Shown piece after piece: positions 1 through 25,778 of a stretch of 45,963 bases of DNA; positions within the stretch are counted from its first letter, which is position 1; each line of letters begins with the position of its first letter. The position numbers were made by a program, and so were the translations under genes. The notes beneath the pieces were generated by a model. It saw nothing but the letters and a program-made list of their open reading frames with translations. It was not told where the DNA came from and searched no databases. The stretch is from an uncultured Azospirillum sp. (GTDB lineage Bacteria > Pseudomonadota > Alphaproteobacteria > RF32 > CAG-239). The DNA is taken from the NCBI GenBank assembly GCA_946623145.1, contig CAMOQT010000001.1, positions 1-45,963 of the forward strand, written 5' to 3'.

Positions 1-857
1 ACTTTTCCGATTAGCTTACCATTGGCATCATACATGTTACCAAATTCATCTACTCTACCAATAATATTGCCATCTTTATCGTAGAGTATTTTTTCAGTTC
101 CTTTTGAAGCTGCTGCTTTACCTATTATTTTTCCGTTTTTATCAACAACGGTTCCATCCGGCAACATATTTCCGATAACATTACCATCTCTATCAACAAC
201 ACTGCCATCCGGATTAACATAACCGATAATATTGCCATTTTCATCATAAACTAAACGGCGATTTTCATCTGCACGGCCTTTTATACTTTTAGTAATAACA
301 TTGCCGTCTTTATCAATATATCCAACCACATTACCGTTTTTATCAACGACGCTGCCATCCGGCATAACAATTCCGATGACGTTACCATCCTTATCGATAG
401 CGACACGCCCTTGTTTGCTGACATGACCTATAATTTTACCGTCCAGGCCAACAACTTCGCCGTTTTTGTTTAAACGCCCGATAACGTTGCCATCTTTATC
501 AACGACACTACCATCAGACAGAACTCTTCCGATAATGTTACCATTTTCATCATAAACAAAGCCCGCATCAACTGCTTTACCGATGACATTACCATCTAAA
601 TCAACAACCGTTCCATCGGCCAAAGCCTTACCGATAACATTCCCTTCTAAATCGACAACTGTTCCATCAGCAAGAACGCGACCGATAATATTACCATTTG
701 CATCATATACTAATCTTGGATTCTCTGCAACGCCGATAATATTACCATTTTCATCAACGATCATTCCGTTAGCATTGACACGACCGATAATATTACCGTT
801 TTCATCTCGAACATATCCATCTTCATCTATTGTACCGATAACTTCGCCATTAGGACC
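1..857 (-). repeat. In-frame tandem coding repeat, about 51 nt (17 aa) per unit, roughly 17 units, continuing past the window edge
   Basis: Recurrent GNVIG/GNIIG cores, e.g. LADGTVVDLEGNVIGKA, LADGTVVDLDGNVIGKA, LSDGSVVDKDGNVIGRL, MPDGSVVDKNGNVVGYI. Track ORF 583..1176(+) is the antisense shadow of this periodicity. Confidence 0.85.
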
Positions 858-1529
858 TATGGCATATCGCGTATTTACCGTTTTTTCATCCACCCCTTTA
901 GCGCCGCCAATACTTGCAGTATCACAGAAATTACAATCTTCTTTACGAATAGCTTTACCTAAGACGGGAACTTTTTGCGATTTATTACTTGCTTTACTCA
1001 AATTAGCTTCACGCCATGTTATAATAAAGTTATTTTGGACATTGCCGGCAACGACAGGAATCCACTTCATTGTGATATCACAAGTTTCGTGGCCTCTCAA
1101 TGTTCTGTTTTTGCATAGTTCATTAAAACTAAAACCATCAAAGGGAGGCTCTGCCAATTCAACAGAAACAATTTGAATTGTTCCGCGTCCGTTTGTTCCG
1201 ATTGTTAAAACATTTTCAGCCTCTGTTCCTAAAACAACTTGCCCCATTTCAACCGGATCCGGTGTTGTTGTTATCGGAATTTCACCTTGATTAATATTTT
1301 CGAATTCAATGCTTTCTTCTTGTTCTGTCGTATTTTGCGATGAAAAAGCATCATCGTTTGATGTAAAAACAGGTGCGCTATATTGCTCTTCTTCTGCGTC
1401 ATCCTGCAGAACAAGCATTAATCCCAAAATAAAGATAATTAAAGAGATAATACCAACCATCAAAATAACATGGTTGGTTTTTCTGACATAACTTTCTGAA
1501 TGAGTTAAAATTTCTCTTTCATCACTCAT
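1..1529 (-). CDS. Membrane-anchored tandem-repeat protein at the VirB10/TrbI position of the T4SS cluster. The 5' end is complete; the gene runs off the left window edge.
   Basis: Absent from the ORF track because it has no in-window stop. My minus-strand translation from ATG 1529-1527 is open to position 1. This ATG overlaps the TGA of the virB9-like gene as ATGA. The product starts MSDEREILTHSESYVRKTNHVILMVGIISLIIFILGLMLVL (one TM helix). A beta-sandwich-looking segment follows (VVLGTEAENVLTIGTNGRGTIQIVSVELAEPPFDGFSF...LRGHETCDITMKWIPVVAGNVQNNFIITW). About 17 tandem units of the form L-x-D-G-x-V-V-D-x-x-G-N-V-I-G-x-x come after that. A VirB10 C-terminal domain is not visible because it would lie outside the window. 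Confidence 0.7.
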   Translation of the reverse strand, partial: MSDEREILTHSESYVRKTNHVILMVGIISLIIFILGLMLVLQDDAEEEQYSAPVFTSNDDAFSSQNTTEQEESIEFENINQGEIPITTTPDPVEMGQVVLGTEAENVLTIGTNGRGTIQIVSVELAEPPFDGFSFNELCKNRTLRGHETCDITMKWIPVVAGNVQNNFIITWREANLSKASNKSQKVPVLGKAIRKEDCNFCDTASIGGAKGVDEKTVNTRYAIGPNGEVIGTIDEDGYVRDENGNIIGRVNANGMIVDENGNIIGVAENPRLVYDANGNIIGRVLADGTVVDLEGNVIGKALADGTVVDLDGNVIGKAVDAGFVYDENGNIIGRVLSDGSVVDKDGNVIGRLNKNGEVVGLDGKIIGHVSKQGRVAIDKDGNVIGIVMPDGSVVDKNGNVVGYIDKDGNVITKSIKGRADENRRLVYDENGNIIGYVNPDGSVVDRDGNVIGNMLPDGTVVDKNGKIIGKAAASKGTEKILYDKDGNIIGRVDEFGNMYDANGKLIGK

Positions 1530-3082
1530 TGGGTTCTAACCACACTACAAAATACACCGTTTCGACCTAAGCGACTGCAAACTTCATCGCCATCTTCCAA
1601 ACTTTCAACAGGACCAACCCTCAAATGGAACAATTCTTTGCCCTGACCATCTGCTGCAGCATCTACAGAGAAAAACGGCTCATAGCGACTTAAAGCGTCA
1701 GGATATTTTTTAGATAATGACGACCATAATTTTTCCAAATTATTGACATCTCCATCTGTTCCCAGTTCAATTGATATGTTGCTGTTATCTGCAAACATTA
1801 GCCCTGGACTGTTTTTGCCCATATTTGCCCAACTTCCTTCCGGGGCATATTGATGATTATTTGGAATTCTTTGCATTTTACTGTAATCAAAACCATCTAC
1901 AGAGGACATTCCGCCAAAGTTTCTTCCCGGACCATACGAAATATTAATTCCTCCATTAGGATTATTTGTATAATTTGAAACCATAAAATCATTGTTACCG
2001 GACATTCCTGCAGAACCAGAATACTGGGCTCCTTTATTCATTCCTTCCGGGATAGGAGCAGGAACTTGCCATTGTCCATCTGTATTTGCAACCGGTGTAA
2101 ATTCAAGACCGCTATCGTCTGAACGGCGCAATTTCAAGCAAACCATTCTTTTTCCGTTTCTCATAACCAGATCGCCAATACCTTCAACAATAATCAATCT
2201 ATTGTTCGGACCTTTAGTTCTGAAACCGACCGGAACTTCAATTCTCTCAACAATTAACGTAACAATCGGGCGTTGAGTCATTGTTAACGCTTTTTCCCCT
2301 AAATCTATGTAAGTAAAGATATCATCTCGCCAAACTCTTTCCGGAGCAATAACAACATCTTCCGGATTAGGGATATAAACTTCCATGTCAAACTTGAACT
2401 TAGAAACATCTAACGGAATAGATTTAATCCAATCTTGACGTTGAAAACTTCTCGTAAAAGTAGAATCCACCGACATATCATTTGAGCCGGAAGCATTTAT
2501 ATGACTTCCACCGCCACCAACGCTACCAGAACCTTTTCCTCCGATAACATCAATATCAATGATTGAGTTTGTCAAACGCTCCGTATTTACGCCTTCACTT
2601 TTTAGGTAGAAAACGTATTTATTTCCACTCCGTCCGAAAATAACAATATTCGTATCGACGCCAACATTTGCACCTTTTTTAGGATATAATAAAACAGTAT
2701 TCGGACCTGATATTTGTCCATCAAAACTAGAGCTATCACCTAAATAAATATCTTCAACCAATTCCCAGCTCGGAAAGTTTAATAAAGTCACCATTCCTTC
2801 TCTAACGCGAATAGGTAGGATAAGATCCGGAGACCAATAGTATTTTGAATAAGCCGGTTTAGTTTGTCCTTCACCTAAATTTTGCAGCGGATCCAACCAT
2901 GCCGTCTGAGTCATTCCCAACGCATTAAAGCCGGCATAATTCATATTCATAGGCATATACATTCCCTGACTTTGATCAGCATTTTGATCCAAACTCCCCA
3001 TTGTTGCCTGAGCGTATGCCTGCCCGGTCAATAACAATATTGAAATCATAAAAACAGAAAATGTACTTATTATTCTTGCCAT
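1526..3082 (-). CDS. virB9: VirB9/TrbG/CagX-family T4SS outer-membrane core protein with a C-terminal SPOR-like domain
   Basis: Signal peptide MARIISTFSVFMISILLLTGQAYAQA. The N-domain pattern is ILPIRVREGMVTLLNFPSWELVEDIYLGDSSSF...NTVLLYPKK...DTNIVIFGRSGNKYVFYLKS. The C-domain pattern is PERVWRDDIFTYIDLG...RPIVTLIV...LIIVEGIGDLVMRNGKRMVCLKL. The extra tail ends in ISIELG...LWSSLSKKYPDAL...ELFHLRVGPVESLEDGDEVCSRLGRNGVFCSVV, which looks SPOR-like. Confidence 0.85.
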   Translation of the reverse strand: MARIISTFSVFMISILLLTGQAYAQATMGSLDQNADQSQGMYMPMNMNYAGFNALGMTQTAWLDPLQNLGEGQTKPAYSKYYWSPDLILPIRVREGMVTLLNFPSWELVEDIYLGDSSSFDGQISGPNTVLLYPKKGANVGVDTNIVIFGRSGNKYVFYLKSEGVNTERLTNSIIDIDVIGGKGSGSVGGGGSHINASGSNDMSVDSTFTRSFQRQDWIKSIPLDVSKFKFDMEVYIPNPEDVVIAPERVWRDDIFTYIDLGEKALTMTQRPIVTLIVERIEVPVGFRTKGPNNRLIIVEGIGDLVMRNGKRMVCLKLRRSDDSGLEFTPVANTDGQWQVPAPIPEGMNKGAQYSGSAGMSGNNDFMVSNYTNNPNGGINISYGPGRNFGGMSSVDGFDYSKMQRIPNNHQYAPEGSWANMGKNSPGLMFADNSNISIELGTDGDVNNLEKLWSSLSKKYPDALSRYEPFFSVDAAADGQGKELFHLRVGPVESLEDGDEVCSRLGRNGVFCSVVRTQ

Positions 3083-3092
3083 TTTTCAAACC

Positions 3093-3839
3093 TTATCTTG
3101 TTTTATTATGCATTAATGAATACCGCATTACCGTGAAACCAACAGGATTATTTAAGCGATCATTAAATTTGACTGATTTTTTACGATACATAACACGCAA
3201 TGATGCTGTCCAATAATTCAACTCCGGCGCAGATGAATACGGATACATATCTTGGGTTTCATACTCTACTTGCCACAATCCCTGTCCAAGTTCGTTAACT
3301 GTCAAGATTTTTACGGTGCGTTGCAATCCTTTTTGTTTAACCAGTTCTAATGCTCTGTTAGCTGTTTTTTTGATAAACTCATCATAAACAGCCGGTGAAG
3401 ACATTTCCTGTACAGCTCCGCCCGGAAGCCAACGAATTTCCATTTCCGTAGCATCATTAATAATTGTACTGCGTTGTAAAATATAATTACGAACAAATGT
3501 TTCCGTAATTGACTTACTTGCGGTTAAATCACTCGAATATGGCTGGATATTATAAACTTGCTCTTCCTTATCTTGGAAACTCAGTAAATATGGCTCGACA
3601 CGAAACAGAGGAATAACCTGTACAATTGCCAACAGCAGAACAACATTACAGCATAAGCTAACCGCAGTTATTACAGCAAAAGCTCTTGCTGTCCACAGAT
3701 AACGTTTTTCATTGGTATTAGCAACAAAAGCCGAACTATGCCGCGAACGCATCGGCGGCTGCCTGTTCGGCTGACGAGCATTCTGCGTGCTTCCAATAAG
3801 ACGACGCTCGTTACCGTTATTCCCTAATTGGTTAACCAT
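3093..3839 (-). CDS. virB8: VirB8/TrbF-family T4SS inner-membrane protein (paralog 2)
   Basis: N-terminal cytoplasmic tail followed by one TM helix (FAVITAVSLCCNVVLLLAIVQVI). The periplasmic domain carries ETFVRNYILQRSTIINDATEMEIRWLPGG, YWTASL and the C-terminal NPVGFTVMRYS motif typical of VirB8. A GGAG RBS lies upstream. Confidence 0.85.
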   Translation of the reverse strand: MVNQLGNNGNERRLIGSTQNARQPNRQPPMRSRHSSAFVANTNEKRYLWTARAFAVITAVSLCCNVVLLLAIVQVIPLFRVEPYLLSFQDKEEQVYNIQPYSSDLTASKSITETFVRNYILQRSTIINDATEMEIRWLPGGAVQEMSSPAVYDEFIKKTANRALELVKQKGLQRTVKILTVNELGQGLWQVEYETQDMYPYSSAPELNYWTASLRVMYRKKSVKFNDRLNNPVGFTVMRYSLMHNKTR

Positions 3840-3854
3840 ATAGAATCTCCAATA

Positions 3855-4058
3855 TTAAATTGTTTCTATGAACCAGTCAGGTAAATTTTTAGGTAAATCA
3901 AGTTGCATACATGCGCAAGGAGATAGCTTTAGCTCATCAATACCTTTACCTACACCAACCGGCTCAGCTTCGTAATACGACCCGAAAATACCGCATGACG
4001 GCAGCATCAATAAAGCTATCGCTATTATAACTTTTTTTAACATTTTGAGATACCTCAT
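3855..4058 (-). CDS. Small lipoprotein, VirB7-like by size and position
   Basis: 67 aa. The signal sequence and lipobox are MLKKVIIAIALLMLPSCG. It lies between the two virB8 paralogs, immediately upstream of virB8-virB9. No sequence motif beyond the lipobox supports VirB7 homology. Confidence 0.5.
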   Translation of the reverse strand: MRYLKMLKKVIIAIALLMLPSCGIFGSYYEAEPVGVGKGIDELKLSPCACMQLDLPKNLPDWFIETI

Positions 4059-4142: not shown

Positions 4143-4898
4143 TTATATGCCTTCAACTCTGGTTTGAGAATAACGCAAAACAGTAAAGCCCATCGGGTTT
4201 ATTAATCTTCGACCAGTAAAAATGCGTTCACGGATAAAAATTCCAGTAATTGAGGCCGTCCAATACTTAGAAGTAATCGTTCTATCTAGCGATGTATTAT
4301 TTTTTCCCAAGGGCTCAAGATTATATGTTTTAAAATCGACTTTCCAGATTGGACTATGTTGTCCACCAACTCTTTGAACATTGATAATTTCGACTTCTTG
4401 AATGAGCTCTCCTCGACCTATTTCGGGCCAAATACTTTCTGTTTGCGATGTAAACTCATTGAAGATTCTGGGGGCGGATAAGAAATTAACAATTCCACCA
4501 GGAAACCACCGAATTCTCATTTCGGTTATATCATCTATAATAGTATTACGCATTTCAACATATTGGCGAACAAACATTTCTGCTATTTTATCTTTTGATG
4601 CCATATTCAAATCAATACTTTCAACACGTACCAAATCTTCACTATTATCTTGGGAAATGATTAAAAATGGTTTCACCGTTACTTGCGGCGCCAAACGAAA
4701 CAAAGATAAAGATGCGCTCCAGAAAAAACTAAGGGATAATACGGCTAAAAAGATAAAGAATCTTGATAACCACATATAATACTTAAGTTTGAGTGATGAC
4801 TCTTTTTGTTTATACTCATTTATGAATTCTATATGGCGCTCTGTATTTCCATCAGTAATTGCCAGAATATGACTTCCTTCAAGTCTGTTTTCTATCAT
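4143..4898 (-). CDS. virB8: VirB8/TrbF-family T4SS inner-membrane protein (paralog 1)
   Basis: One TM helix (FFIFLAVLSLSFFWSASLSLF). It carries EMFVRQYVEMRNTIIDDITEMRIRWFPGG, YWTASI and the C-terminal NPMGFTVLRYS. It is clearly paralogous to 3093..3839. Confidence 0.85.
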   Translation of the reverse strand: MIENRLEGSHILAITDGNTERHIEFINEYKQKESSLKLKYYMWLSRFFIFLAVLSLSFFWSASLSLFRLAPQVTVKPFLIISQDNSEDLVRVESIDLNMASKDKIAEMFVRQYVEMRNTIIDDITEMRIRWFPGGIVNFLSAPRIFNEFTSQTESIWPEIGRGELIQEVEIINVQRVGGQHSPIWKVDFKTYNLEPLGKNNTSLDRTITSKYWTASITGIFIRERIFTGRRLINPMGFTVLRYSQTRVEGI

Positions 4899-4908
4899 CT
4901 GTTAAGCC

Positions 4909-7900
4909 CTATAGATTATCCTCTAATTGACCACAATATGGATCTTCAATAAACTTAAGTTGTTGTTCAAAGCTCTTCTCTTCCTCTTGTTCTAGGCGAG
5001 CTGTGACTTCTTTATTTGCTCTCTGTGCTTTAATTTCTTCATCAAGCTTAGAATTGTTTTCTGTATCGTCACCTATAGAAACAAGTGCTTCGCTATCTTT
5101 TTGTAAGACACCAATTAAATTATTGATTCTATCCATACGTTCTTTTATTACCTCATTATCATTTCCTTGTAAAGCACTAACACTATTTTGCGCCTTCTTT
5201 AACATTTCATTACGATAATTCAAGAGAGAACTTCTGGCTGCATTATAATCACTGTCTCGGGTTAAATCAAAATCGCTAGCCATTGAAAATTTTAATCGAG
5301 AGAACAACTCTTTCAACTCTTCTTTTGTTTCATCCAAACTAACTTTAGATTCTTCTAAGTTTTGGAGAGATTCTTGTTCATAATCGACAGCTTTCAAAAA
5401 CTCTCCCAGTTGTGTCTTTTCCATACTGATTTCACTATCTAGTATGTCTTCAATTTTTCCTTCAGCATTCTGACCTTTATTTGCTTTAGACAATGCTTGG
5501 AAAACATTTTTAGCAAAAGCATTAAATTTCAAGCCATTATTGTATTCAAACAAATAGCCTAATTCGCTCTCTGTTTCTGCCGGCTTAAAACTTGAGAATG
5601 GTTTAAGTTTACCGGAACCTCTAATATCATTAGCCGGATTATAAACAGTTGCATTATTATGAGAAACCGTGAGTACAAATCCTGAACACTGTTGATAGTT
5701 TTTTTCCAAAAGTTCTTTACGTCGTTTAATGCTTTCTGTATCCTCTTGAGCAAACAAACCAACCATAATGCTTTCAGGTTTATAATAAATTACGTATCCT
5801 GACTTATGGTTTCCTTCATCATAGGAAGTGACAAGATAGTTCTTTCCTTCATCATACCAACAAGGATATTTTCCTGCATTTGCAAGTTTTGCTTCAGATG
5901 GTTTAATAACCGCACTTAAATCAATATCCTTTTCGATATACGCCGGAGAAGATAATATTTTTTTCCAAATATCTGGAATATAGGTCATATTTTCAAGAAG
6001 TCCTTCTTTTGTTATAAGACCATTATCTCCTTGCGGAATACTATCATAGTCGGAATAATCGAAATAAACAACATCGCGAACTGATGGTAACGGGCTGTCA
6101 GGAACAATTGCCGGAGCCAAGAAGTCTCGACGTTTTCCGTTGTTACTGACGAAGCATTCTTTATCCGGAACTTTACAAACATCTTGCTGACAAGCATCAT
6201 TTGTAATGTAAGCTTTGTAGATGTTCTTTAACAAAGACATAATACCGCTGTAAGATGAGTATTTTTGTATTCCCTCGCTGAAAGAAACTAAATCTTGATC
6301 ATTTAAGTTCTTTAAGTGCTCTATTAATTGAGCGTGTTCTGCTGTTACCATTTCTATATGACCAGGTGTATTTCCTTCCTGCTGAGGTCTTATTTCTCGC
6401 TTATACATCTGTTCATTAATATCATTGATGCGCTGAACCGTTTCATTAATAACTTCTCTTGCCGCTCCTTTTGTATCATTGACTAACATATTAGCATCTG
6501 CAAGTATTTCAGGAAGGGTAAATAAATATTTTTCTCCATTATCATCTACCGTCGGAATCTTGAAATTACTCTTATAATATTGAGCCAAGTCAACGTTATT
6601 ATATTTTGCCAATGCTGTCGCATAGTCTTTTTCAGCTTTAGCAATGCGCGTATCATACAAGATTGTTGCTTCCCTTGTTTCGTTTACATAATTTTTGTTA
6701 ACGTTCTCTTTTTGCGCCTTTATTAATTCTAATTTATCTTTATCTTCTTGTAATTTTGCCTTAAGATTCTCGACTTTCTGTTCTTGAGCCGGAACTTCAG
6801 TAGTCAAGCGCAATACGTCTTCCCGAGCTTTTGCCAAATTTTCTTTAGCCAACAACAATCTGTCGGGTTCTTCCTCTTCAACTTCTTTTTCCGTAACAAT
6901 AACCTTGTTATATGTTCGGATATCTTGAGGCATAACGTTTGATTCTTTCTCTTTTCCATCTATCATTTCCGACATTGAGATTGTCTTGGTCAAAGAAGTT
7001 TGCGGCTCTGTTGTGATAGAAACTTTTGGTGATGTTCTATAACCGGTATTATCACTTTGTTTTGTAACATTTGTTACCGTCTGAGTTGTTGTGGCGTTTG
7101 AAGTCCCAGCTTTAGTATTGGTAGAAGAGGCTGTTTTAGCGACACTTGTCGTATTCACAGAAACAGGATTTTCTGTTTTGATGATTTGTTTTACTCCAGA
7201 AGCTGTGATATTCTTAGCTGTCACATCAGCAACTTCTTCATCTGCAATTTCTAATGCTGGTTCTTTTTGTAATGTTAAATCTTTATCTTCTAATTTGTTT
7301 TGAGAAAGAGCCTGTACAGATGTTTTTAAGGTTTTCGTTTCAGCTTCTTTTGCCGAAATTGTTTTATCCTTTGTATCTGCAACTTTTTCAGAGACTTTCT
7401 CCGAAGCCTCCTTTATCTCTTTAGTATCACTAATTAAACTCTTCTGAAGAGTTGCTTTTTCTATCTGCGCACTTGCAACTAAGTTATGATCCTTATAAAA
7501 GCCTTGATAGATATTGTAACTTTGTTTTCCTGTAAATCCTGCGTTTAGATCTTTCTTATATTCTTCCGTTGTTGTTTCAAAGACTTTTGTATTTGGAACC
7601 TGAAGCTCGTGCTCATAAATTGTTTCAACTAAGCGCTCATTTGCAGAAACCTCTTGCTCGGCTTTTATTTTTTCATCTTTCAAGTTTTGCAATATCAATG
7701 TCTCTTTATCAACATTCGCTTGTTTTTGATTGATTTGATTGATTAGAGCTTTTTCTTCCTGCTCCAATTTTTTCATTTTTGTTTCTTTTGCATTATAAAT
7801 GCTTGTTATTTTTTGTTTCTTTTCGGCAATCAAAGCATCAACTTCACTAACAGCTTCTTCACGATCCTGTTTTAATTTGTTTTTAAGCTCAGTTAATCCT

Positions 7901-9591
7901 GCTTTATTGTTCGTCCGCTCTTTTCCGTCACTCAAAATATCAATTAATTTTGAGGCAACATTCAGGGCTAACTCATTTGTATTAAAGGCCTCAAGACTTT
8001 TAGCTATGCTGTCATATTTTCCTTCTATATATTGGTTATAATAGGACTGTGTATCTTTCCATACCGGATAGAGTACTTTTGCTTTACCCCAAGAACCGTC
8101 TTTGCCGTTTTTCAATTGATCTTCTGCCAACATTTTTGCAGCTTCTGCCCCTATATTCCAAGGAATACGACGGCTTTCTTTTAGCTCGGCATTAACCTGT
8201 TTTTCCTTATTTGCATCTTTAAATCCTGAACTGCTTGGTTGAACATCTTTTCCAATACTTTCTTCCAATTTTGTTAAATCGTTAGGATCAGCTGATTCGT
8301 CATAATCTGCCTCTTCAAAATCCTCAGCTGAAGCTACTGTTCCTGTATCTTCTGCTTTTGCTAAAATCAATGCTTTTACAGCCCATCCGGAAATACCTTT
8401 ACGCAAATCATAATTTGTAATGTTATTTTCGCTCAAATTACCATTCCACATTTTTGCCGGGTTTTCATACATCTCCCCGTAATATCTGATAGCACATTGT
8501 TCTGTTCTTTTAATAGCATCTATTGCGGCTTGATGTATTTTTATGTTTTTCTGATAGTTTTTATATATTGCTTTATAAGAAGGTAAATTCAAAGCATAGT
8601 TATGCATTTCAACTGCTTCTTTTAGATAATTATTGGCTTCTGTTATTTTTGCCAACAAAGCAAGATTTTCTCGGTTATCAGCATACGGGTCTTTCAAATC
8701 TGCCGGTGTTTCAACAAATTTAAGGCGATTTCCATAATCTAACTCTTCTTCATCATCTGTGACCTCAGCAAAAGAAATTGTGCTTTTATTATTGAAAGAA
8801 GCAGCTAACTTGATGTTATCTTCCATAAAATAGTCGTTCATTGCCTTTTTGTCTTTTGATACCGGATGAGATGGCGTTACAGACTCAGAACCTATCGCCT
8901 GAGCTGCAATATATTGTAACCGCAAGGCTTCCAACTCTTGGATCAGTTTAAGAACTGATGATAGTGTCTGATAAGTATTATATGAGTTTGTCCATGCTGT
9001 TAAAGCATCTTCATTGTTTTCTTGGGTCTTTTCATCAATATCTTTAACTGCTTGTTCCAACTTTTCTAAGTCTGCTTCCATTTGTCTTGCCAATGTATAG
9101 ATTTCAATAACCTTATCTTGATGGAATTCTTTGGCTTTATCTTGATATCCTCTACAAATATTAACATTTTCAGGTTTGCTCTTATCTTGGCAGTCAACAG
9201 GATATTGGAAGAATAATTTATACATTGCTTCTTGAACAGAAATTGGATCTGTATCTTTAGCTATTTTTGATTTTTTCAACTCTTTAACACCGGCTAAAGC
9301 TTTTTTTCTGGCATTTTTATAAATACCGCCAACAAAGGCTTTTGCTTTATCCATATATGAATCAAACATTGCCTTTGCTTGTTGGTTTATTTGTTGCATA
9401 TAAGCCGTCATCTGTGCTTGAATATTTTGGGCTTGGGTTTGAACCGCGGATAAAACTTCCTGAACATCTGTTCCGGCATCAATATCCGGACATGGCGGCA
9501 ACACCGGACATGGCGGCAAGAAAGCTTTCACCGGACCGGATAAAAAGCATACTGTAAGAATAGCAAGCAGATATATCTTTAATTTTCTCAT
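4909..9591 (-). CDS. Giant (1560 aa) secreted coiled-coil / Ser-Thr-rich protein, function unknown, in the VirB5/VirB6 slot
   Basis: Uninterrupted ORF with an AGGAGG RBS upstream. The signal peptide is MRKLKIYLLAILTVCFLSGPVKA, followed by FLPPCPVLPPCPD. Long heptad-like Q/K/E-rich stretches and a central T/S/N-rich low-complexity block are present. No hydrophobic helix occurs after the signal peptide. Confidence 0.75.
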   Translation of the reverse strand: MRKLKIYLLAILTVCFLSGPVKAFLPPCPVLPPCPDIDAGTDVQEVLSAVQTQAQNIQAQMTAYMQQINQQAKAMFDSYMDKAKAFVGGIYKNARKKALAGVKELKKSKIAKDTDPISVQEAMYKLFFQYPVDCQDKSKPENVNICRGYQDKAKEFHQDKVIEIYTLARQMEADLEKLEQAVKDIDEKTQENNEDALTAWTNSYNTYQTLSSVLKLIQELEALRLQYIAAQAIGSESVTPSHPVSKDKKAMNDYFMEDNIKLAASFNNKSTISFAEVTDDEEELDYGNRLKFVETPADLKDPYADNRENLALLAKITEANNYLKEAVEMHNYALNLPSYKAIYKNYQKNIKIHQAAIDAIKRTEQCAIRYYGEMYENPAKMWNGNLSENNITNYDLRKGISGWAVKALILAKAEDTGTVASAEDFEEADYDESADPNDLTKLEESIGKDVQPSSSGFKDANKEKQVNAELKESRRIPWNIGAEAAKMLAEDQLKNGKDGSWGKAKVLYPVWKDTQSYYNQYIEGKYDSIAKSLEAFNTNELALNVASKLIDILSDGKERTNNKAGLTELKNKLKQDREEAVSEVDALIAEKKQKITSIYNAKETKMKKLEQEEKALINQINQKQANVDKETLILQNLKDEKIKAEQEVSANERLVETIYEHELQVPNTKVFETTTEEYKKDLNAGFTGKQSYNIYQGFYKDHNLVASAQIEKATLQKSLISDTKEIKEASEKVSEKVADTKDKTISAKEAETKTLKTSVQALSQNKLEDKDLTLQKEPALEIADEEVADVTAKNITASGVKQIIKTENPVSVNTTSVAKTASSTNTKAGTSNATTTQTVTNVTKQSDNTGYRTSPKVSITTEPQTSLTKTISMSEMIDGKEKESNVMPQDIRTYNKVIVTEKEVEEEEPDRLLLAKENLAKAREDVLRLTTEVPAQEQKVENLKAKLQEDKDKLELIKAQKENVNKNYVNETREATILYDTRIAKAEKDYATALAKYNNVDLAQYYKSNFKIPTVDDNGEKYLFTLPEILADANMLVNDTKGAAREVINETVQRINDINEQMYKREIRPQQEGNTPGHIEMVTAEHAQLIEHLKNLNDQDLVSFSEGIQKYSSYSGIMSLLKNIYKAYITNDACQQDVCKVPDKECFVSNNGKRRDFLAPAIVPDSPLPSVRDVVYFDYSDYDSIPQGDNGLITKEGLLENMTYIPDIWKKILSSPAYIEKDIDLSAVIKPSEAKLANAGKYPCWYDEGKNYLVTSYDEGNHKSGYVIYYKPESIMVGLFAQEDTESIKRRKELLEKNYQQCSGFVLTVSHNNATVYNPANDIRGSGKLKPFSSFKPAETESELGYLFEYNNGLKFNAFAKNVFQALSKANKGQNAEGKIEDILDSEISMEKTQLGEFLKAVDYEQESLQNLEESKVSLDETKEELKELFSRLKFSMASDFDLTRDSDYNAARSSLLNYRNEMLKKAQNSVSALQGNDNEVIKERMDRINNLIGVLQKDSEALVSIGDDTENNSKLDEEIKAQRANKEVTARLEQEEEKSFEQQLKFIEDPYCGQLEDNL

Positions 9592-9609
9592 CTCTTTGTC
9601 CTCCTTGCC

Positions 9610-11094
9610 TTATAGTCCGATGCCTGTTGAGCCGCTTATCTTTCCGGTTATACTACCGGCTTTATTTATAGCGTTGCTGACGTTACCTAAACCACTTGAT
9701 CCTGTTACGCTACTGGCTTTTTCTGCCAAACCACCTATTTTTCCTAATAAATCATTGGCTTTTCCGGCTTTTTCTTTGAGACTGCTTAAGAAGCTTTGTT
9801 TTTCAAATTTATAATCGTCAAGACTAAAGACCAAAACATCTTTATCATAATTGTTCAATCTTCTATTGAGATAAACCATATCTTTAGCTGTCTCCATCTT
9901 TAATTCTATCAGCATTAATCTTGCAAATTTAAGAAGTTGGTTCATTTGTTCAACCTTAATCTTCATATCTAATTGTAGCATACCTTGTTCTGTCTCTGCT
10001 GTTGAGGCTTTTTCCTCAAATTCCTTTATTGTATCTTGTAATGTATCATCTTCACTCAAGACACTAATAGCTGTTGCATAAACATCTGCGGTATCTTCTA
10101 TGGCCATTTGGCGGCGGTAGCGAATAATTTCACCATTACGCTTACTCGACTCTTCTTCATTTTTCTCATAGAAATTATTTTTGATAATCGCGTTCATAGA
10201 TTCACCCGGATCATCAGTAATACCTTTCAAGCTCAAACTACTCTTTAGATTTATCCCCTGAGTTAAATTAGATAAATTAGCCATTTGAGTCATATTCTGT
10301 ACTAAAGATTCGGCTTTTGCTGCTGCAGATTTAATGCCATCAATACTTTTGCTTATTTCTTTCATTGTCTTTTCGGCATCTTCCTGCGTTTTAGCTCTTT
10401 CGGCAGCAGATTTATCTGAAATTTCTTTTATTTTTGCATTATTTTTATCAATAGCTTCCTGATACTTTTTCTTTTCCTCATCCGTTTCAGCTTTTGCTTT
10501 GCTTTCTTCTAATACTTTATTATTATCCTTGTATTTCTGGATTTCAGCATTTTTCTTATCTTCAATATCTTGCAATGCTTGTTGCAATTTTTCTTTAGCA
10601 AAACCTAAGTTAATCTCAAGATTTCGCATTTCTTGTGCTTGTTCCAGAGCTTTACTTGCTGTTTCAGTATATTCGCTACTAACCCCCATAGCTGACGCGG
10701 CATTTCCAGCTGCGGATGTAGCATTTTGAGCAGCTGAAGCCATATTCTGTGCCGCACCCATTGCTCCGTTAATATCCCCGCTGGCGGCGGCATTAGCAAA
10801 ATTTTTAGCAGAATCCACGGCTCCTTTTGCTGCATTTACAGCATTTTTAGCAGCATCAACTTTTCCCTTAACATCAGCTATAAGCCCTTTTGCTTCACCT
10901 GCTAATCGCGTTAACATTGTTACTTGGTTTTGAACATATCGCTGAACATCGGAAATTTTGGTTTGGACACGTCCGACAATTTCCGTAATACTTGTTCCCA
11001 TACTTCCGAAGTCAAACTTAACCTGAGCTTTTGCAGGAACAGAGCAAAAACTACATAAAATAAAGCAAATAACCGCTATTCTTATTTTACTCAT
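9610..11094 (-). CDS. Secreted Ala-rich coiled-coil protein (494 aa from the preferred start), function unknown
   Basis: I prefer the ATG at 11094 (MSKIRIAVICFILCSFCSVPAKA signal peptide). It overlaps the upstream stop as AATGAGTAA. The track start at 11127 adds 11 residues. After the signal comes QVKFDFGSMGTSITEIVGRVQTKISDVQRYVQNQ. An AAKNAVNAAKGAVDSAK alanine-rich region and a Gly/Ser-rich C-terminus follow. Confidence 0.7.
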   Translation of the reverse strand: MSKIRIAVICFILCSFCSVPAKAQVKFDFGSMGTSITEIVGRVQTKISDVQRYVQNQVTMLTRLAGEAKGLIADVKGKVDAAKNAVNAAKGAVDSAKNFANAAASGDINGAMGAAQNMASAAQNATSAAGNAASAMGVSSEYTETASKALEQAQEMRNLEINLGFAKEKLQQALQDIEDKKNAEIQKYKDNNKVLEESKAKAETDEEKKKYQEAIDKNNAKIKEISDKSAAERAKTQEDAEKTMKEISKSIDGIKSAAAKAESLVQNMTQMANLSNLTQGINLKSSLSLKGITDDPGESMNAIIKNNFYEKNEEESSKRNGEIIRYRRQMAIEDTADVYATAISVLSEDDTLQDTIKEFEEKASTAETEQGMLQLDMKIKVEQMNQLLKFARLMLIELKMETAKDMVYLNRRLNNYDKDVLVFSLDDYKFEKQSFLSSLKEKAGKANDLLGKIGGLAEKASSVTGSSGLGNVSNAINKAGSITGKISGSTGIGL

Positions 11095-11785
11095 TTTTCT
11101 GTTCCTCCTCAGATTTAACGGCTTCACGTTGAAGACCCGTTATGTTTTGAGTGTATTGATATGTTTGTAATGCGCTTTCCATCAGATAGATTTCAGACAT
11201 ACGCCCAACAATATCAAGCGCCATTATGTTTACTTCTCTTTGGACAGCCGCTTGATCATTCATATCTACATCCTGCGGTGTCGGTTCTTCCGTTAAAAGT
11301 GCTTTTTTAGAATGACCTATGGCATAAAGTGTTGAAACGGCATCTTGCATTAATTCTCTTTTAATTTGCTCGATATTTTCATATTGTTCGTCATCATTAC
11401 CTTCTTCGACAGGCGGATTATATTTTTCACCAACAGCATCTGCGACTTTATCTTGATCGTCAGCTTTAATCGGATTTGGTATGCCATCTGGTATTTTTGA
11501 TAAATTTTTCAATGCTTTCAAATCACCACCTGCTGCGGCCGCTAAACTCCCTTTAGCCTTATCTACAGCGCCCATTGCCTGACTCTTAAAGTTTTCAGCG
11601 CGCTCTTTGGCTTCCATTATTTTAGTTTTTATTTCATTGACTTTTTCTTGATAAAGTTTGGCTTTTTCTTGAATTTTCGTTATCATATTTTGAATTTTTT
11701 GCGGAAATTCTTTATCTGCACGTGCCGGAGAAGGAAAAATCATCATCAATGCAAAAAGTGCTATTATAATTTTTTTAGACATCAT
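11087..11785 (-). CDS. Secreted helical protein, 232 aa, VirB5/TrbJ-like by size, position and predicted helicity (weak)
   Basis: The signal peptide is MMSKKIIIALFALMMIFPSPARA, with an AAGGAGAAG RBS upstream. It is helix-prone throughout and has the size of VirB5/TrbJ proteins. It shares the motif pattern IYA[IT] ... E[IL]..[ML]E with its three neighbours. Confidence 0.55.
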   Translation of the reverse strand: MMSKKIIIALFALMMIFPSPARADKEFPQKIQNMITKIQEKAKLYQEKVNEIKTKIMEAKERAENFKSQAMGAVDKAKGSLAAAAGGDLKALKNLSKIPDGIPNPIKADDQDKVADAVGEKYNPPVEEGNDDEQYENIEQIKRELMQDAVSTLYAIGHSKKALLTEEPTPQDVDMNDQAAVQREVNIMALDIVGRMSEIYLMESALQTYQYTQNITGLQREAVKSEEEQKNE

Positions 11786-11793
11786 TCTTCTCC

Positions 11794-14481
11794 TTATTTT
11801 CCGACCGGCATTAATTTCGTCAGCGTTGTCAAACCATTGTATGCAATACGGCTGGCATATCCTTTAATAATGTCATCCAAAACAAAAATCATTTCTTTAT
11901 TACCTTTTACTAAGGCTTCTTTTCCTTTATGTGCATCACTTGCATCTTGAGCTGCTTCTTTTGTTTGTTTCATGATTCCTTGCTCATATTCTGCACTTTT
12001 TACCTTTTGGAAAAAGCCTGTTGCTAATATATTAATCATATTAGAATACTGTATTTGATCAATAAAAGCACGGCTGGTTAACTCTGTTTCTTTGTTATAT
12101 TGCTCTTGGAAAACTTTTTGATAACAAGTTTTAATAACCGAAGGATCGCTTCCTACTGTATACTCGCATTTCCGAGCTAAATTTTCAGGCATAATCGGAA
12201 AATTAATAGCTACTTCCGCATCTGCGTGAGCTACCTGATAATCATATTCTTTATCTGAATCATTATCTAAGCCGATGTCTGTTTCCGGATCCAAAATTTC
12301 TTTTGTGGCGGTATCTATCGCACCCATTCCCGCTGTTATTAAAGATGTTGCATAGATATTTCGAACACGATTCATTAAATAAACCAATTGGACATTAGCT
12401 ATTGCTATATTAGATATTCCGCTGTTATTATCTTCAACATTTTTTACCGTATCATATAACTTTGATAAAACATCTTCTTTGTATGATGCGGAAATGGTTT
12501 TATCTAAAAGGGCTTCAACATTTGCATTTTCTGCTTGTTCCATTTGCATATCTGCAATGATACCTGCAGTCTCTTTTCTAACAGTTTCATCTTCTGAGGT
12601 TAAATCCGTTGATAATTTTTTGATAGCATCCGGAATAACATTCATATCTTTTAAATCTTCTGGCTTAAGGCAAAATGTTTGAGCAAATAATTTAGACATT
12701 ATCAACATATCTGTTACTTGACCATTAGCCTCTACAACCATTTTATAATCAAAATCGCTGCAGTCTGACGCTTCTGTTGCAAATTTCAAAGTATCCGCAT
12801 GGCTTACTTTTATGCTATTTTGCCTGGCAAACTCTCCGTCATCCAACCACAAACTGCTATTCTTTTGCAAGGTCTTTGCCGGAGTAATCTTTGCAGGTTC
12901 CTTGCTCGAAGTAGCGGCCGGAGCTTTATCGGTTTTGCTCGGAGATATAGTAAAGGCTTTGCGTCCTCCTGTTGTTTTTTTTGCTGTCGGCTCATAAATC
13001 TTGCTATTTGAGTTAACAACTTTAGCTGTATCCATATCCGCAATAGCACCTAATGTCTTAGTATCGCCTTTACGAATTGCTTCAGTCATTGTCTGCTTTA
13101 AGGTTCTTAATGCCGCAAAGCTTCCTTCTTCGTTAGCGACATCTTCTATTTCCTTAATATTTTCTTCAGCCTCTGATAAATCTTCATCTTCAACAGTTCC
13201 TTCCGATGGAATTATCGGAGCAGATATTTCAGCTGGTGCAGCTGTCGGTGCTGCTATTTCTGTCGGTGCTGCCATTGTTGCAGATGCAGATGCCGTTGGG
13301 GATGTAAAAATCGTCTTCGGAGTTGATTTTAGCACTTTTGTTGTTGCTGCAGAAGTCGTTTGGGTTTTGCTTTGTCCTTTTGTTGCTCCTGACGTTTTAA
13401 CCGTACTTTTTGTTGCCGGTGCTACCGTCTTACTTAGTGATTTTTCACCGCTTAAGGTCGGATTAGCAATTTTTTCAGCTGAACTTAAAGCTTCATTATC
13501 ACTATGATTACCCGTTCCAGATCTTGCATAAAAACTCATGACAGGTCCTGTGATTTCTACGTCATCCTCATAATCGTCAGACGCCGCTAAGTCATCACTT
13601 GTTCCTTGAGTAAATCCAACTCTTCCCTTTGTTCCGGATGCAGATAGAGAAGTACTTCCACTCATTGGAGTTAAGGCCGTTGATCCGGATTGATTAAAGA
13701 TTGTTGTCTGTGTTGAACGTGGTTCTGTCGACAAAGCTTTTGTTCCTGTTTGTAAAGACTTTGTTGAGACGCTTGAACTTTGATTTGTATATTCACCGCC
13801 ACTTACTGCTGATGATCCTTTTGATGCAGATGTTGCTCCGCTTAAAGCAGATGTTGCACCACCTAAGGCAGATGTTGCACTACTAACTTTATTTTGGATG
13901 CCAGTTGCCATATTTTGAACAGCATTTATTTTTGAAGTTGCCTGATCTTTAATGGCATTAACTTTATCTTTTGCCTCATTAACTTTGTCTTTTATTTCAT
14001 TGACTTTATTTTTAGCCTCATTGACCTTGTCTTTTACTTCATTGACTTTATTTTTAGCGTCATTAACGGCTTTCTTTGCTTTATCAGCTTGCTCTTTAAT
14101 CTTTTGCTGATAAGCTTCTAATTTTGCTTTTTGCTCTTCATATTTCTTCTTTAACTCTTTAACTTTCTCAAGTTTCTTTTTGGCTTCTTCCTGTATTTTC
14201 TTAATTTTTTCTGCTTTCTTTTTCAGTTCTTCCGCTTTGCTTTGCGCCATCGCCGCCATACTTTTGGCTTTACCTATGGCATTATTGATTTGGGTTACTG
14301 CTTTACATTGCGTTACCATTTTAACTTTTTGCTGAACCTGCGTTACACCGGATTGCACCTTTTTTGCAATATTTCCAAAATCTACGGTTGGAAACGCATC
14401 AGCGGTAGGAACAAGGGCTATCGAGCTTAATAAACATACTAAGCCAAATATAGTTGTCTTGACATAATTGTTTAAATGCAT
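11794..14481 (-). CDS. Secreted 895-aa coiled-coil / low-complexity protein with a TrbJ/VirB5-like N-terminal motif
   Basis: An AAGGAGGG RBS lies upstream. The signal peptide is ...IFGLVCLLSSIALVPTADA, followed by FPTVDFGNIAKKVQSGVTQVQQKV. This resembles the [IV]P[VI][IV]D..N...Q......QQ start of TrbJ/VirB5 as I recall it. Heptad repeats (DKVNEAK-type, about 6 copies), a long S/T/A/P-rich spacer and a structured-looking C-terminal third follow. Confidence 0.7.
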   Translation of the reverse strand: MHLNNYVKTTIFGLVCLLSSIALVPTADAFPTVDFGNIAKKVQSGVTQVQQKVKMVTQCKAVTQINNAIGKAKSMAAMAQSKAEELKKKAEKIKKIQEEAKKKLEKVKELKKKYEEQKAKLEAYQQKIKEQADKAKKAVNDAKNKVNEVKDKVNEAKNKVNEIKDKVNEAKDKVNAIKDQATSKINAVQNMATGIQNKVSSATSALGGATSALSGATSASKGSSAVSGGEYTNQSSSVSTKSLQTGTKALSTEPRSTQTTIFNQSGSTALTPMSGSTSLSASGTKGRVGFTQGTSDDLAASDDYEDDVEITGPVMSFYARSGTGNHSDNEALSSAEKIANPTLSGEKSLSKTVAPATKSTVKTSGATKGQSKTQTTSAATTKVLKSTPKTIFTSPTASASATMAAPTEIAAPTAAPAEISAPIIPSEGTVEDEDLSEAEENIKEIEDVANEEGSFAALRTLKQTMTEAIRKGDTKTLGAIADMDTAKVVNSNSKIYEPTAKKTTGGRKAFTISPSKTDKAPAATSSKEPAKITPAKTLQKNSSLWLDDGEFARQNSIKVSHADTLKFATEASDCSDFDYKMVVEANGQVTDMLIMSKLFAQTFCLKPEDLKDMNVIPDAIKKLSTDLTSEDETVRKETAGIIADMQMEQAENANVEALLDKTISASYKEDVLSKLYDTVKNVEDNNSGISNIAIANVQLVYLMNRVRNIYATSLITAGMGAIDTATKEILDPETDIGLDNDSDKEYDYQVAHADAEVAINFPIMPENLARKCEYTVGSDPSVIKTCYQKVFQEQYNKETELTSRAFIDQIQYSNMINILATGFFQKVKSAEYEQGIMKQTKEAAQDASDAHKGKEALVKGNKEMIFVLDDIIKGYASRIAYNGLTTLTKLMPVGK

Positions 14482-17369: not shown

Positions 17370-17909
17370 TTATTCAAATGCCCATAAAATATTATTTTCT
17401 TCTTTACAATATTGCTTTGCTTGTGTTTTGGACAAAGGCAATCCATTATTTCCCCAGCTAAATTCATAACTCCCCGAATCATTCAGAATTGCCATAGAAA
17501 TAAGTCCTAATTTATCTTCCTCAGCCCAATACAAAGAAGCTAATTCTATACATTCTTTTTTATTCAAATCTTTATATCCGATTACAAAACTATGCTGTCC
17601 CGGCATTACTTGATTACCATTAATATCGCTACCTATAATAACACTTTTATTTAAATTGTTCAAAATTTGATTGTTATTCATTTTACCGACATATAAATTC
17701 AGTTTTATGGCTTCACTATTATTCAATCCCCAATAATCGGGACGATTTCTATAGTAAGCGCGAATATTTTCTGACATTTTTATGATATCTTTATTAGCTT
17801 GAACAATTTCTGAAGAGGGTCTTTCAAAACAAAGAATTACACCTATCAGCAAAATACTTGCTAATGAACTCAGCCATATATATATTATAAGTTTCTCTTT
17901 GTTTTTCAT
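17370..17909 (-). CDS. Type IVb pilin-like protein (PilS/BfpA-like globular domain) with a non-canonical N-terminus
   Basis: I prefer the ATG at 17909, one nt after the pilR stop; the track start at 17987 overlaps pilR by 77 nt. The N-terminus MKNKEKLIIYIWLSSLASILLIGVILCFE forms a single hydrophobic helix. The remainder follows a BfpA-like layout: SENIRAYYRNRPDYWGLNNSEAI..., ...KDLNKKECIELASL... and ...LSKTQAKQYCK. The two Cys are spaced like the pilin D-region disulfide. No Gly(-1) or Glu(+5) is present. Confidence 0.5.
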   Translation of the reverse strand: MKNKEKLIIYIWLSSLASILLIGVILCFERPSSEIVQANKDIIKMSENIRAYYRNRPDYWGLNNSEAIKLNLYVGKMNNNQILNNLNKSVIIGSDINGNQVMPGQHSFVIGYKDLNKKECIELASLYWAEEDKLGLISMAILNDSGSYEFSWGNNGLPLSKTQAKQYCKEENNILWAFE

Positions 17910-17910
17910 C

Positions 17911-19023
17911 TTATTTACCCATGTTACTGGTAATTTGATCTTGCATATCAAATACGCCCATAACGGCCCAAGCAATAATACCACCAATTGAAAGTAAGGC
18001 TATCATATTTAAAATTTCAGCTTTTTGTTCAATAACATAGACAGATTCATCCAGCCAATCGTTTGCCAAATTATCAATTGCTTCTTCAAAGTTATCCAAT
18101 TCAGAGTATACCGCCAAATCTGAAATAATTTCTTTATCTGGAAATTCTAACTCTGTTTTATATAAAGCTTGACCTAAGTTATCACCGTTATTAATAAAAC
18201 GGAGAGCTTTATCTATTTTTTCACGAAGGTATTTATTTGCATCTCGGCGAAGTGTTGACATTGCACTTGAAACAGGGGTACCACCTTTAATCAATGCAGC
18301 CATAGCCAACAGCCAGCTAATACCTGTAAAGATTTTATACAAAGACCATGGCGGACAACGGTCAAAAATTACTCTTATTTTTCCGGTCCAAATACCGATT
18401 GTCGCATAAATAACCAACATTGTTACCGGAAGTATTGAGAACGCTATTGCCCAATAAACCTGAATCCATTCAGAAACATCAACCAAATCGCGTGCTGTTC
18501 CTGTCCATTTTACGTTCGGGGCAGCTTCTTGCATCGGCGGCACCATATAGACACCGATTGCGTATAAAATCAAAATAGACATCATCATCAAAAACGCCGG
18601 ATACGCAATAGCACCTACAATCGGACGAATCATTTTAGTAGATCCTTCCGTCACCTTAATCAAATTAAGCAACGCACTTTCGAGGTTTGAAACATCACCG
18701 GTTGATAACATCAGTCTTTCTCGTCCCGGAGCCCAACCACGCAACGCATCGGCAAAAGTTAAACCATTTTGTAAGGTCTTCATCCAAGAGACAATTGCAA
18801 TAGCCATCGGTTCATATGGGTTTTTACCATTATCACTTGCTCCGTTATACAACAAATCCAGAGCATCCATTAACGAAAATCGGTTGGCCATCAATGAGGC
18901 CAATTTTCTATATATTTTTAGACGCGTTTTATTAGAAAATAAACAAATTATCTGAGCGTATTTTATTTCTATAGCACTTATCTTTCTTAACGTTCTACCC
19001 GATATTCTTGAGCCCTCTACCAT
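17911..19023 (-). CDS. pilR: GspF/PilC-family polytopic platform protein (IncI1 PilR equivalent)
   Basis: 370 aa, the same size class as IncI1 PilR/BfpE/TcpE. It has three hydrophobic segments interleaved with helical cytoplasmic domains. An AGGAG RBS lies upstream. It immediately follows the GspE-type ATPase gene. Confidence 0.85.
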   Translation of the reverse strand: MVEGSRISGRTLRKISAIEIKYAQIICLFSNKTRLKIYRKLASLMANRFSLMDALDLLYNGASDNGKNPYEPMAIAIVSWMKTLQNGLTFADALRGWAPGRERLMLSTGDVSNLESALLNLIKVTEGSTKMIRPIVGAIAYPAFLMMMSILILYAIGVYMVPPMQEAAPNVKWTGTARDLVDVSEWIQVYWAIAFSILPVTMLVIYATIGIWTGKIRVIFDRCPPWSLYKIFTGISWLLAMAALIKGGTPVSSAMSTLRRDANKYLREKIDKALRFINNGDNLGQALYKTELEFPDKEIISDLAVYSELDNFEEAIDNLANDWLDESVYVIEQKAEILNMIALLSIGGIIAWAVMGVFDMQDQITSNMGK

Positions 19024-19032
19024 ATTAAACTC

Positions 19033-20736: not shown

Positions 20737-20741
20737 TGAAA

Positions 20742-23430: not shown

Positions 23431-23453
23431 CTGTTTATACCTTCCTAATGGAT

Positions 23454-25073: not shown

Positions 25074-25683
25074 TCTCATCCTCCTTAGTTTCGATAACTA
25101 ATACACGATTACCTTTATAATATGTTCCTATCGGAGCCGGCTTTGCCCGAGCAAAAGTTCTAATTAGAGCTGCGCTGGCATCAGCAAAACGCCCTCTAAA
25201 CATAGCACCGGCCGTCAATGGATAATTACGATTTGTTTTCCAAACCAATCTCCATCCAGCTCTATCACTCCACTCTCCCAATAATTCTTTTAGATTTTGA
25301 CCCTCTTCGGCCAACCAATCTTCTATAGGATCTTCCGGATTTTGAACATTCTCACGATTTTCCCCATCATCTTCTGAAGAAACAGCATCATCATACTCTT
25401 CAACCTCTTCATCTACTGATGGCGGAATAGACGCAGACATATTGCTTCCGGCCGCTGTTCTTACAACATTTTGATCACGAGGCGTTCTTTCGCCATATTG
25501 TTTGTAATCCGCAGCCACATCAGTATACGGAACAAAATCAGCTTTTCCGCCAGCAGGACCTGCAGACGTTACTTCCGTACAATCAGGATCATCAGGGTAA
25601 TCCATCGGCTGTGTCAAAGTACCCATACAGCCCGAAATAATTAACATTAAAAAGACTATGCAAAATTTGAATTTTATATTCAT
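25060..25683 (-). CDS. Lipoprotein with a TcpQ/PilL-type C-terminal domain
   Basis: The signal and lipobox are FCIVFLMLIISGCMG, followed by an acidic linker. The C-terminal part is WLAEEGQNLKELLGEWSDRAGWRLVWKTNRNYPLTAGAMFRGRFADASAALIRTF. This is the pattern I associate with TcpQ/PilL domains, which pair with T4b secretins. It lies directly upstream of the secretin gene. Confidence 0.6.
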   Translation of the reverse strand: MNIKFKFCIVFLMLIISGCMGTLTQPMDYPDDPDCTEVTSAGPAGGKADFVPYTDVAADYKQYGERTPRDQNVVRTAAGSNMSASIPPSVDEEVEEYDDAVSSEDDGENRENVQNPEDPIEDWLAEEGQNLKELLGEWSDRAGWRLVWKTNRNYPLTAGAMFRGRFADASAALIRTFARAKPAPIGTYYKGNRVLVIETKEDENAFE

Positions 25684-25778
25684 TATCCGAGTTCCTACGT
25701 GTTTTTTTGTTTCTTATCATACAGTTGGAAAATTAAATAATCAAGCACCGAGACGGACTTATTACCAACTACCATAAA

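Follow-up and report, generated by a model that had tools for sequence, protein, structure and literature searches.

A giant, hairpin-filled VirB10 probably divided over two genes in the type IV secretion locus of an uncultured RF32 alphaproteobacterium

[quoted passage not shown] The canonical protein couples to these ATPases by its cytoplasmic tail. To our knowledge, canonical homologues always carry the membrane anchor and the TrbI barrel on one membrane-spanning chain. Here, we describe a locus that seems to depart from this organization. It is situated at the start of a stretch of 45,963 nucleotides, further called the window, from an uncultured Azospirillum sp. of the RF32 lineage of Alphaproteobacteria (GenBank assembly GCA_946623145.1, contig CAMOQT010000001.1, positions 1 to 45,963 of the forward strand). 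The gene directly behind virB9, of which the first 509 codons lie in the window, probably encodes the N-terminal half of a split giant VirB10, that is, the inner-membrane half of a two-gene VirB10. Its product is designated VirB10-N and that of the next gene VirB10-C. The architecture and the homology of this split VirB10 can be put forward with even greater confidence.

Two of the ingredients are already known, namely repeat-expanded VirB10 proteins (CagY and DotG) and beta-flower proteins. The repeat regions of DotG and CagY have been proposed to form a periplasmic "collar" (bioRxiv 10.1101/2023.03.22.533729). The beta-flower fold was defined in 2023 from AlphaFold models (Durairaj et al. 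2023, PMC10584680; Pfam PF21784/PF21785, DUF3659 PF12396). In the members described so far, 4-6 hairpins close into a small barrel of about 96 residues (PMC10584680). What appears to be new is a VirB10 filled with beta-flower repeats and, more strikingly, one whose anchor and barrel are encoded by different genes, neither of which turned up in the searchable literature. A literature search gave nothing combining VirB10 with DUF3659, nor RF32 with type IV secretion, and the papers on beta-flowers that it returned were without T4SSs. In the databases, these proteins are named only "DUF3659 domain-containing" or "5-fold beta-flower" protein.

The parent record of the window, a 97-kb ENA metagenome scaffold (ERZ28612953, scaffold_213) labelled L001, was located by means of the adjacent VirB9 protein. 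The virB10-N gene presents the following features, given in window coordinates:

1..1529, minus strand: first 509 codons of virB10-N, continuing in frame in the parent scaffold (L001:11554-16155).
1467..1529, minus strand: predicted cytoplasmic tail, residues 1-21, with the motif LTHSExYVxKTN (invariant columns in 15-24 orthologues).
1404..1469, minus strand: single transmembrane helix, residues 21-41, a 21-residue apolar run (hydropathy and AlphaFold2 (AF2) model).
945..1277, minus strand: predicted ASH/PapD-like (choice-of-anchor-D-like) beta-sandwich, residues 85-195, with conserved Cys139 and Cys150 (sub-threshold profiles and fold matches).
924..935, minus strand: conserved CxxC motif C199-N-F-C202, in KEDCNFC (orthologue alignment).
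3..869, minus strand: 17 canonical beta-hairpin units of ~17 residues each (xDGxVVDxxGNVIGx), residues 221-509 (Pfam and AF2).
583..1176, plus strand: antisense shadow open reading frame (ORF) of 197 residues within the repeat tract, listed in the public gene calls instead of the real gene.

The ATG of virB10-N (1529..1527, minus strand) overlaps the TGA of virB9 (1528..1526) as ATGA. This overlap recurs in six of eight orthologous loci, the remaining two having a spacer of 6-9 nt. The full ORF counts ~1533 codons and runs past window base 1. A preliminary description, made from the letters of the window, had proposed both the coupling to virB9 by ATGA and the extension of the repeat array past the window edge, and in these respects it proved to be correct. 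The protein consists of hairpin repeats through to the stop, with the C-terminus ...GYALPEVAKNRRN, and the context EVAKNRRN directly before the stop codon is kept in nine loci from independent assemblies. Pfam does not detect the TrbI/VirB10 domain (PF03743) in the 509 residues of the window, in the remaining 990 residues, or in the orthologues L006 and L002; in the protein beyond the window the only Pfam matches are to beta-flower, DUF3659 and RHS. A second giant gene starts 18 bases downstream of the stop.

These data bear on the original reading of the gene as a complete single-chain VirB10, with the TrbI barrel just past the window edge. The position directly behind virB9 agrees with it, as does the existence of relatives with single-chain beta-flower VirB10s that have the same N-terminal module. 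Nevertheless, it has become so improbable that it can practically be abandoned. The ORF stops after repeats only; an assembly error common to the nine loci that share the stop context is implausible, the signal peptide encoded downstream being conserved too; and in every relative examined, a separate TrbI-bearing gene comes next. The preliminary description had itself named the absence of a TrbI domain, with a separate virB10 behind the gene, as the outcome that would speak against it, and this is what is found, the TrbI domain of the separate gene being seen in the orthologues. What survives is the idea of a linker replaced by a beta-rich repeat: the single-chain relatives do carry such a linker and the same N-module, but the flagged gene lacks the barrel.

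According to the gene calls of the record, VirB10-C has 2366 residues here. The retrieved part (L001:16174-21557) covers 1794 of these and comprises a signal-peptide-like presequence and beta-flower-type repeats. The best 120 homologues of this gene are 1475-1767 residues long and combine beta-flower repeats with a C-terminal TrbI domain. In the closest relative (L006), the Pfam TrbI match reaches 1e-35, and ComB10 (1e-20), TrwE, CagY and TraF are all found among the matches of the barrel region. The VirB10-C presequences measure 29-35 residues and have a conserved small residue at -1 before (Q/I/A)EITAIDF. Their apolar cores span 9-18 residues, as opposed to 21 in the transmembrane segment of VirB10-N. 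The VirB10-C clusters of 1552 and 1569 residues differ by start codon and not by repeats.

The same arrangement, VirB8 - small lipoprotein - VirB8 - VirB9 - VirB10-N - VirB10-C - VirB11, was found in nine loci from independent assemblies, all metagenome-assembled genomes of gut and rumen Alphaproteobacteria. The TrbI-barrel end of VirB10-C and virB11 behind it are present in 9/9, and the position between virB9 and virB11 is confirmed in these relatives, albeit shared by virB10-N with a second gene. In these loci, the VirB10-N orthologue counts 1137-1397 residues and the Bflower+TrbI protein 1408-2101. The VirB10-N family is built up of three parts: an N-terminal module of about 225 residues (52-71% identity), a variable tract of canonical hairpins that ranges between species from 276 to 672 residues (about 16 to 39 units), and a gapless module of 636 residues with degenerate hairpins (49-78% identity). 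The last 20 residues of VirB10-N have a mean pairwise identity of 0.83 against 0.57 overall, and the mature residues at about 31-120 of VirB10-C reach 0.79-0.87 against 0.54 overall. Judged from these alignments, the termini that the split would have created are the most conserved segments of each half. The junction between both genes is a spacer of 0-24 nt or an overlap. Furthermore, the lengths of the two proteins co-vary, from 1137/1511 up to 1533/2366 residues (r=0.95 over eight loci, and 0.79 with the divergent outlier L011, of 1361/1408 residues, the loci being phylogenetically non-independent). Some close relatives differ by 49-142 residues.

A profile of the N-terminal 229 positions of VirB10-N was searched against 1.84 billion representative proteins. 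It matches residues 1 to about 230 of proteins of 1498-2363 residues (E 1e-30 to 1e-19), as well as ASH-type proteins with up to 35 tandem copies of the domain. All four single-chain matches that were scanned carry Bflower repeats and a C-terminal TrbI domain in the same chain, and the three single-chain loci fetched each have one gene between virB9 and virB11. VirB10-N aligns end to end with the first 1100-1240 residues of these single-chain proteins (BLASTP, 25-29% identity), and VirB10-C with their last 1500-1670 residues. In midpoint-rooted neighbour-joining trees, whether built from the N-module or from the barrel region, the two-gene loci form one monophyletic, shallow clade among deeply branching single-chain lineages. 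Because of this shallow clade, and because canonical VirB10 resides on one chain, we infer that an ancestral giant VirB10 underwent a single fission, possibly by duplication and complementary loss.

Window base 1 adjoins a 100-N scaffold gap inside virB10-N (L001:13083-13182), which makes it uncertain how many repeats the gene has in this genome. Its two flanks agree at 84 of 92 nt, the eight mismatches are all synonymous third-position changes and both flanks encode the same peptide; they represent either neighbouring repeat copies or strain variants. The public ENA gene calls are without the ORF and have instead the antisense ORF of 197 residues and a fragment of 971 residues beyond the gap. 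Many database entries of the family are fragments of 136-412 residues, and many end in junk. From the gap with its near-identical flanks, the junk-ended entries and the mis-called region, it could be argued that virB10-N is an artefact or a pseudogene, either through mis-assembled repeats or with a stop between the giant genes that results from a sequencing error or recent decay. This is very improbable. A real gap and overlapping flanks would both preserve the reading frame, and the silent nature of the mismatches argues likewise. Ungapped orthologues in other assemblies have the same architecture, including the gapless 636-residue module, and one single-chain cluster has 141 members, of which 14 of the 15 listed are exactly 2201 residues long. 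The uncertainty is confined to how many repeats this scaffold has.

Alternatively, VirB10-N could be an autonomous accessory protein, derived from a partial duplication of a giant VirB10 and not paired with VirB10-C, for example a peptidoglycan- or glycan-binding periplasmic scaffold or a spacer for the T4SS or for the neighbouring type IVb pilus. As a duplication predicts, the C-module of VirB10-N and the N-module of VirB10-C best match the same region of the single-chain proteins (about residues 240-1250). In favour of an accessory role, the repeat model also shows a weak resemblance in fold to choline-binding and LytC hairpin repeats, and the VirB9 of this locus has a peptidoglycan-binding SPOR domain (Pfam E=2.7e-5, above cut-off; the L004 orthologue has a weak SPOR match). 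However, VirB10-C of the split clade has lost its membrane anchor and only VirB10-N supplies one. The tight coupling of both genes, the conservation of precisely the termini created by the split and the co-varying lengths also argue for a pair, and we consider an accessory role unlikely.

The reading of VirB10-N and VirB10-C as complementary halves of one VirB10 has its own weak points. There is no unique fission junction: hidden Markov models of the last 120 residues of VirB10-N and of the first 200 mature residues of VirB10-C match many repeat positions similarly in eight single-chain proteins. Summed, the split halves are 300-500 residues longer than the single-chain forms, and the order of canonical and degenerate tracts in VirB10-N is not simply that of the single-chain front; a simple break and duplication with complementary loss are equally likely. 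The proposed interaction between both proteins is deduced from sequence. In this scaffold, the retrieved part of VirB10-C stops ~570 residues before the end of the protein, and its TrbI domain is predicted from orthologues that are 64-78% identical. The putative signal peptide of VirB10-C was called by the -3/-1 rule and the length of the h-region. Finally, the AF2 hairpins are confident (predicted local distance difference test (pLDDT) about 80-90), but the global shape of the array has a predicted template-modelling score (pTM) of only 0.34-0.46.

The N-terminal module of VirB10-N starts with a tail in which L8, T9, S11, E12, Y14, K17, T18 and N19 are invariant among the 15-24 aligned orthologues; the tails of the single-chain VirB10s carry a similar motif, SSSEQYxKKSNR. 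The apolar stretch at residues 21-41 has a Kyte-Doolittle value of 3.1, no second hydrophobic stretch occurs in the 509 residues, and AF2 models a helix at residues 10-41. A basic RK precedes the helix and 12 acidic residues follow it, which indicates an N-in topology. On the basis of the positive-inside rule, the modelled helix and the Cys pairs, VirB10-N is predicted to be a bitopic inner-membrane protein with a periplasmic ectodomain. The conserved Cys pairs of this ectodomain would fit such a location, and the single-chain counterpart of the CxxC segment reads DCVICE. The sequence between residues 85 and 195 scores below the curated cut-offs of both Pfam ASH (PF15780, E=2.3e-5, 24.9 bits, gathering score 27) and NCBIfam choice-of-anchor-D (NF012200, E=8.9e-5, 23 bits, cut-off 45). 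AF2 places strands at 86-194 with a pLDDT of about 80. In a Foldseek comparison with the PDB, this model matches CEP192 (6fvi, template-modelling (TM) score 0.62) and HYDIN (2e6j, TM-score 0.72), both with probability 1.0, a value also reached by HYDIN chains of the ciliary central pair. By its model, the segment is assigned an immunoglobulin-like PapD/ASH beta-sandwich fold.

In the repeat tract, the AF2 model of residues 221-509 has 34 strands, that is, 17 hairpins with a period of about 17 residues. Thus, the single transmembrane helix, the PapD/ASH-like sandwich (by fold, if not by sequence score) and the roughly 17 copies of a 17-residue repeat of the preliminary description are all recovered. 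The repeat-family search that it had suggested also names the family that it could not: the window repeats match Pfam Bflower_2 (E=1.4e-30, 105.8 bits, cut-off 38), DUF3659 (E=5.7e-24, 84.2 bits, cut-off 24.8) and Bflower (E=7.9e-19, 68.6 bits, cut-off 25), and the beta-flower scores are still higher in the protein beyond the window. The units carry the [DNEQ]xxG tip motif of the beta-flower. By these profile scores, the repeats are assigned to the Bflower_2 / Bflower / DUF3659 families (in a clan with Tubby-C), and not by chance. There are cross-matches to YD/RHS repeats (TIGR01643 YD_repeat, 66.6 bits; Pfam RHS_repeat, 49 bits). The full protein has ~39 canonical hairpin units followed by the degenerate-repeat module of 636 residues, about 75 hairpins in total. 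A super-repeat of 216 nt (four hairpins) is present in virB10-N and one of 153 nt (three hairpins; 8.6 copies, 72% matches) in the retrieved part of virB10-C, which suggests higher-order structural units of 3-4 hairpins. Because ~75 hairpins per chain far exceeds what is needed to span the periplasm, the arrays would probably coil or close into a bulky structure. Among PDB structures, the repeat model comes closest to Rhs cores (8uy4, E=6e-15), with a TM-score of about 0.1 and a root-mean-square deviation (rmsd) of about 25 A, and no closed-barrel analogue is among its Foldseek matches.

Most likely, VirB10-N keeps the inner-membrane anchor and the cytoplasmic tail, with which it would contact the ATPases, and VirB10-C would be exported by Sec and join the outer-membrane core complex with VirB9 and VirB7. 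Both halves would then reassociate non-covalently in the periplasm by means of their hairpin arrays and jointly bridge the envelope, as a bulky assembly that resembles the "collar" put forward for the repeat regions of DotG and CagY. Such a non-covalent reassembly, to which the conserved new termini, the tight gene coupling and the length co-variation point indirectly, has in our opinion an even chance of being the mechanism. It is a more tentative thought that the halves, with 1000-1900 hairpin residues each, lie side by side in a multi-megadalton cage or collar unlike any solved T4SS, and that energy is sensed across a non-covalent hairpin interface.

Further upstream, the window contains other T4SS genes and, adjoining these, a pilus cluster:

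1526..3082, minus strand: VirB9/CagX-family gene, 518 residues, with a C-terminal SPOR domain (Pfam).
3093..3839, minus strand: second VirB8 paralogue, part of the conserved upstream synteny block.
3855..4058, minus strand: VirB7-like, lipoprotein-like ORF of 67 residues with a lipobox-like LPSC, in the same block.
4143..4898, minus strand: VirB8 paralogue, in the same block.
4909..14481, minus strand: four proteins (1560, 505, 232 and 895 residues) between virB4 and virB8, with no Pfam family above cut-off.
17370..27464, minus strand: type IVb (R64 thin-pilus/Tcp-like) pilus cluster with TcpQ-like protein, secretin, PilO, T2SSE ATPase and T2SSF platform, adjoining the T4SS genes.
36047..37015, plus strand: ELM1-like ("mitochondrial fission ELM1") gene, PF06258, E=9.5e-64, among housekeeping genes.

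We know of no VirB9-SPOR fusion in the model T4SSs. The order B8-B7-B8-B9-B10-B11 presumably recalls the rvh system of Rickettsiales. A VirB4 ATPase gene is found further upstream in the window, and VirB6, VirB2, VirB3 and VirD4 were not identified in the window. The large upstream proteins were considered as VirB6 candidates and rejected, none being polytopic: those of 1560, 895 and 505 residues have a single N-terminal signal-peptide-like hydrophobic segment and the 232-residue protein has none above threshold. The T4SS is chromosomal, since housekeeping genes (dnaX, rsmI) fill the rest of the window.

The natural split into anchor and barrel, together with the surviving single-chain sisters, offers a ready comparison to ask whether the relay by VirB10 needs covalent continuity. 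After those of CagY and DotG, it is also a third type of giant repeat insertion for VirB10, with a chemistry of its own, and it provides a first clear machine context for the recently named and function-less beta-flower/DUF3659 repeat. Moreover, the T4SS annotation of these common gut bacteria is incomplete, because gene callers mis-call the repeat region and databases give only generic family names.

In comparison with known systems, VirB10-N resembles canonical VirB10/TrbI proteins (A. tumefaciens VirB10, TraF of pKM101, TrwE of R388, H. pylori ComB10) in its position behind virB9, its short tail, its N-in transmembrane helix and its periplasmic linker. Unlike these, it lacks the TrbI barrel, which resides on a separate protein with a signal peptide, and where they have a Pro-rich linker it has an ASH-like domain and roughly 1300 residues of beta-hairpins. 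With the ASH/PapD-like and choice-of-anchor-D domains of HYDIN, CEP192 and bacterial surface proteins it shares the fold (TM-scores 0.62-0.72), but, in contrast to the multi-copy ASH proteins, there is a single, membrane-adjacent copy in a T4SS subunit. The likeness to Rhs/YD-repeat proteins (Rhs effectors of type VI secretion systems, BC components of Tc toxins, teneurins) is local, confined to the hairpin, and does not extend to the global shape. An Rhs toxin was rejected: the Rhs core motif PxxxxDPxGL is absent, and Pfam scans of either part of the protein gave no toxin domain. To the beta-flower proteins there are matches far above the gathering scores, and the tip motif is common to both; unlike the described members, VirB10-N has its many hairpins in one chain, in 3-/4-hairpin super-repeats and joined to T4SS modules. 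Finally, CagY of H. pylori and DotG/IcmE of Legionella are likewise giant VirB10-type proteins with long, copy-variable repeats between the transmembrane anchor and the TrbI barrel. A recombination rheostat as in CagY was set aside, given the divergence of the repeats at the DNA level (61-80% matches) and the nearly constant length of one single-chain cluster. The repeats themselves are different, being beta-flower/YD-like hairpins of 17 residues instead of the 10-residue units of DotG or the CagY repeats, and an ASH-like domain is present. The single-chain relatives, like CagY and DotG, unite anchor, repeats and barrel in one chain, whereas here two genes are involved and the flagged gene ends before any barrel.

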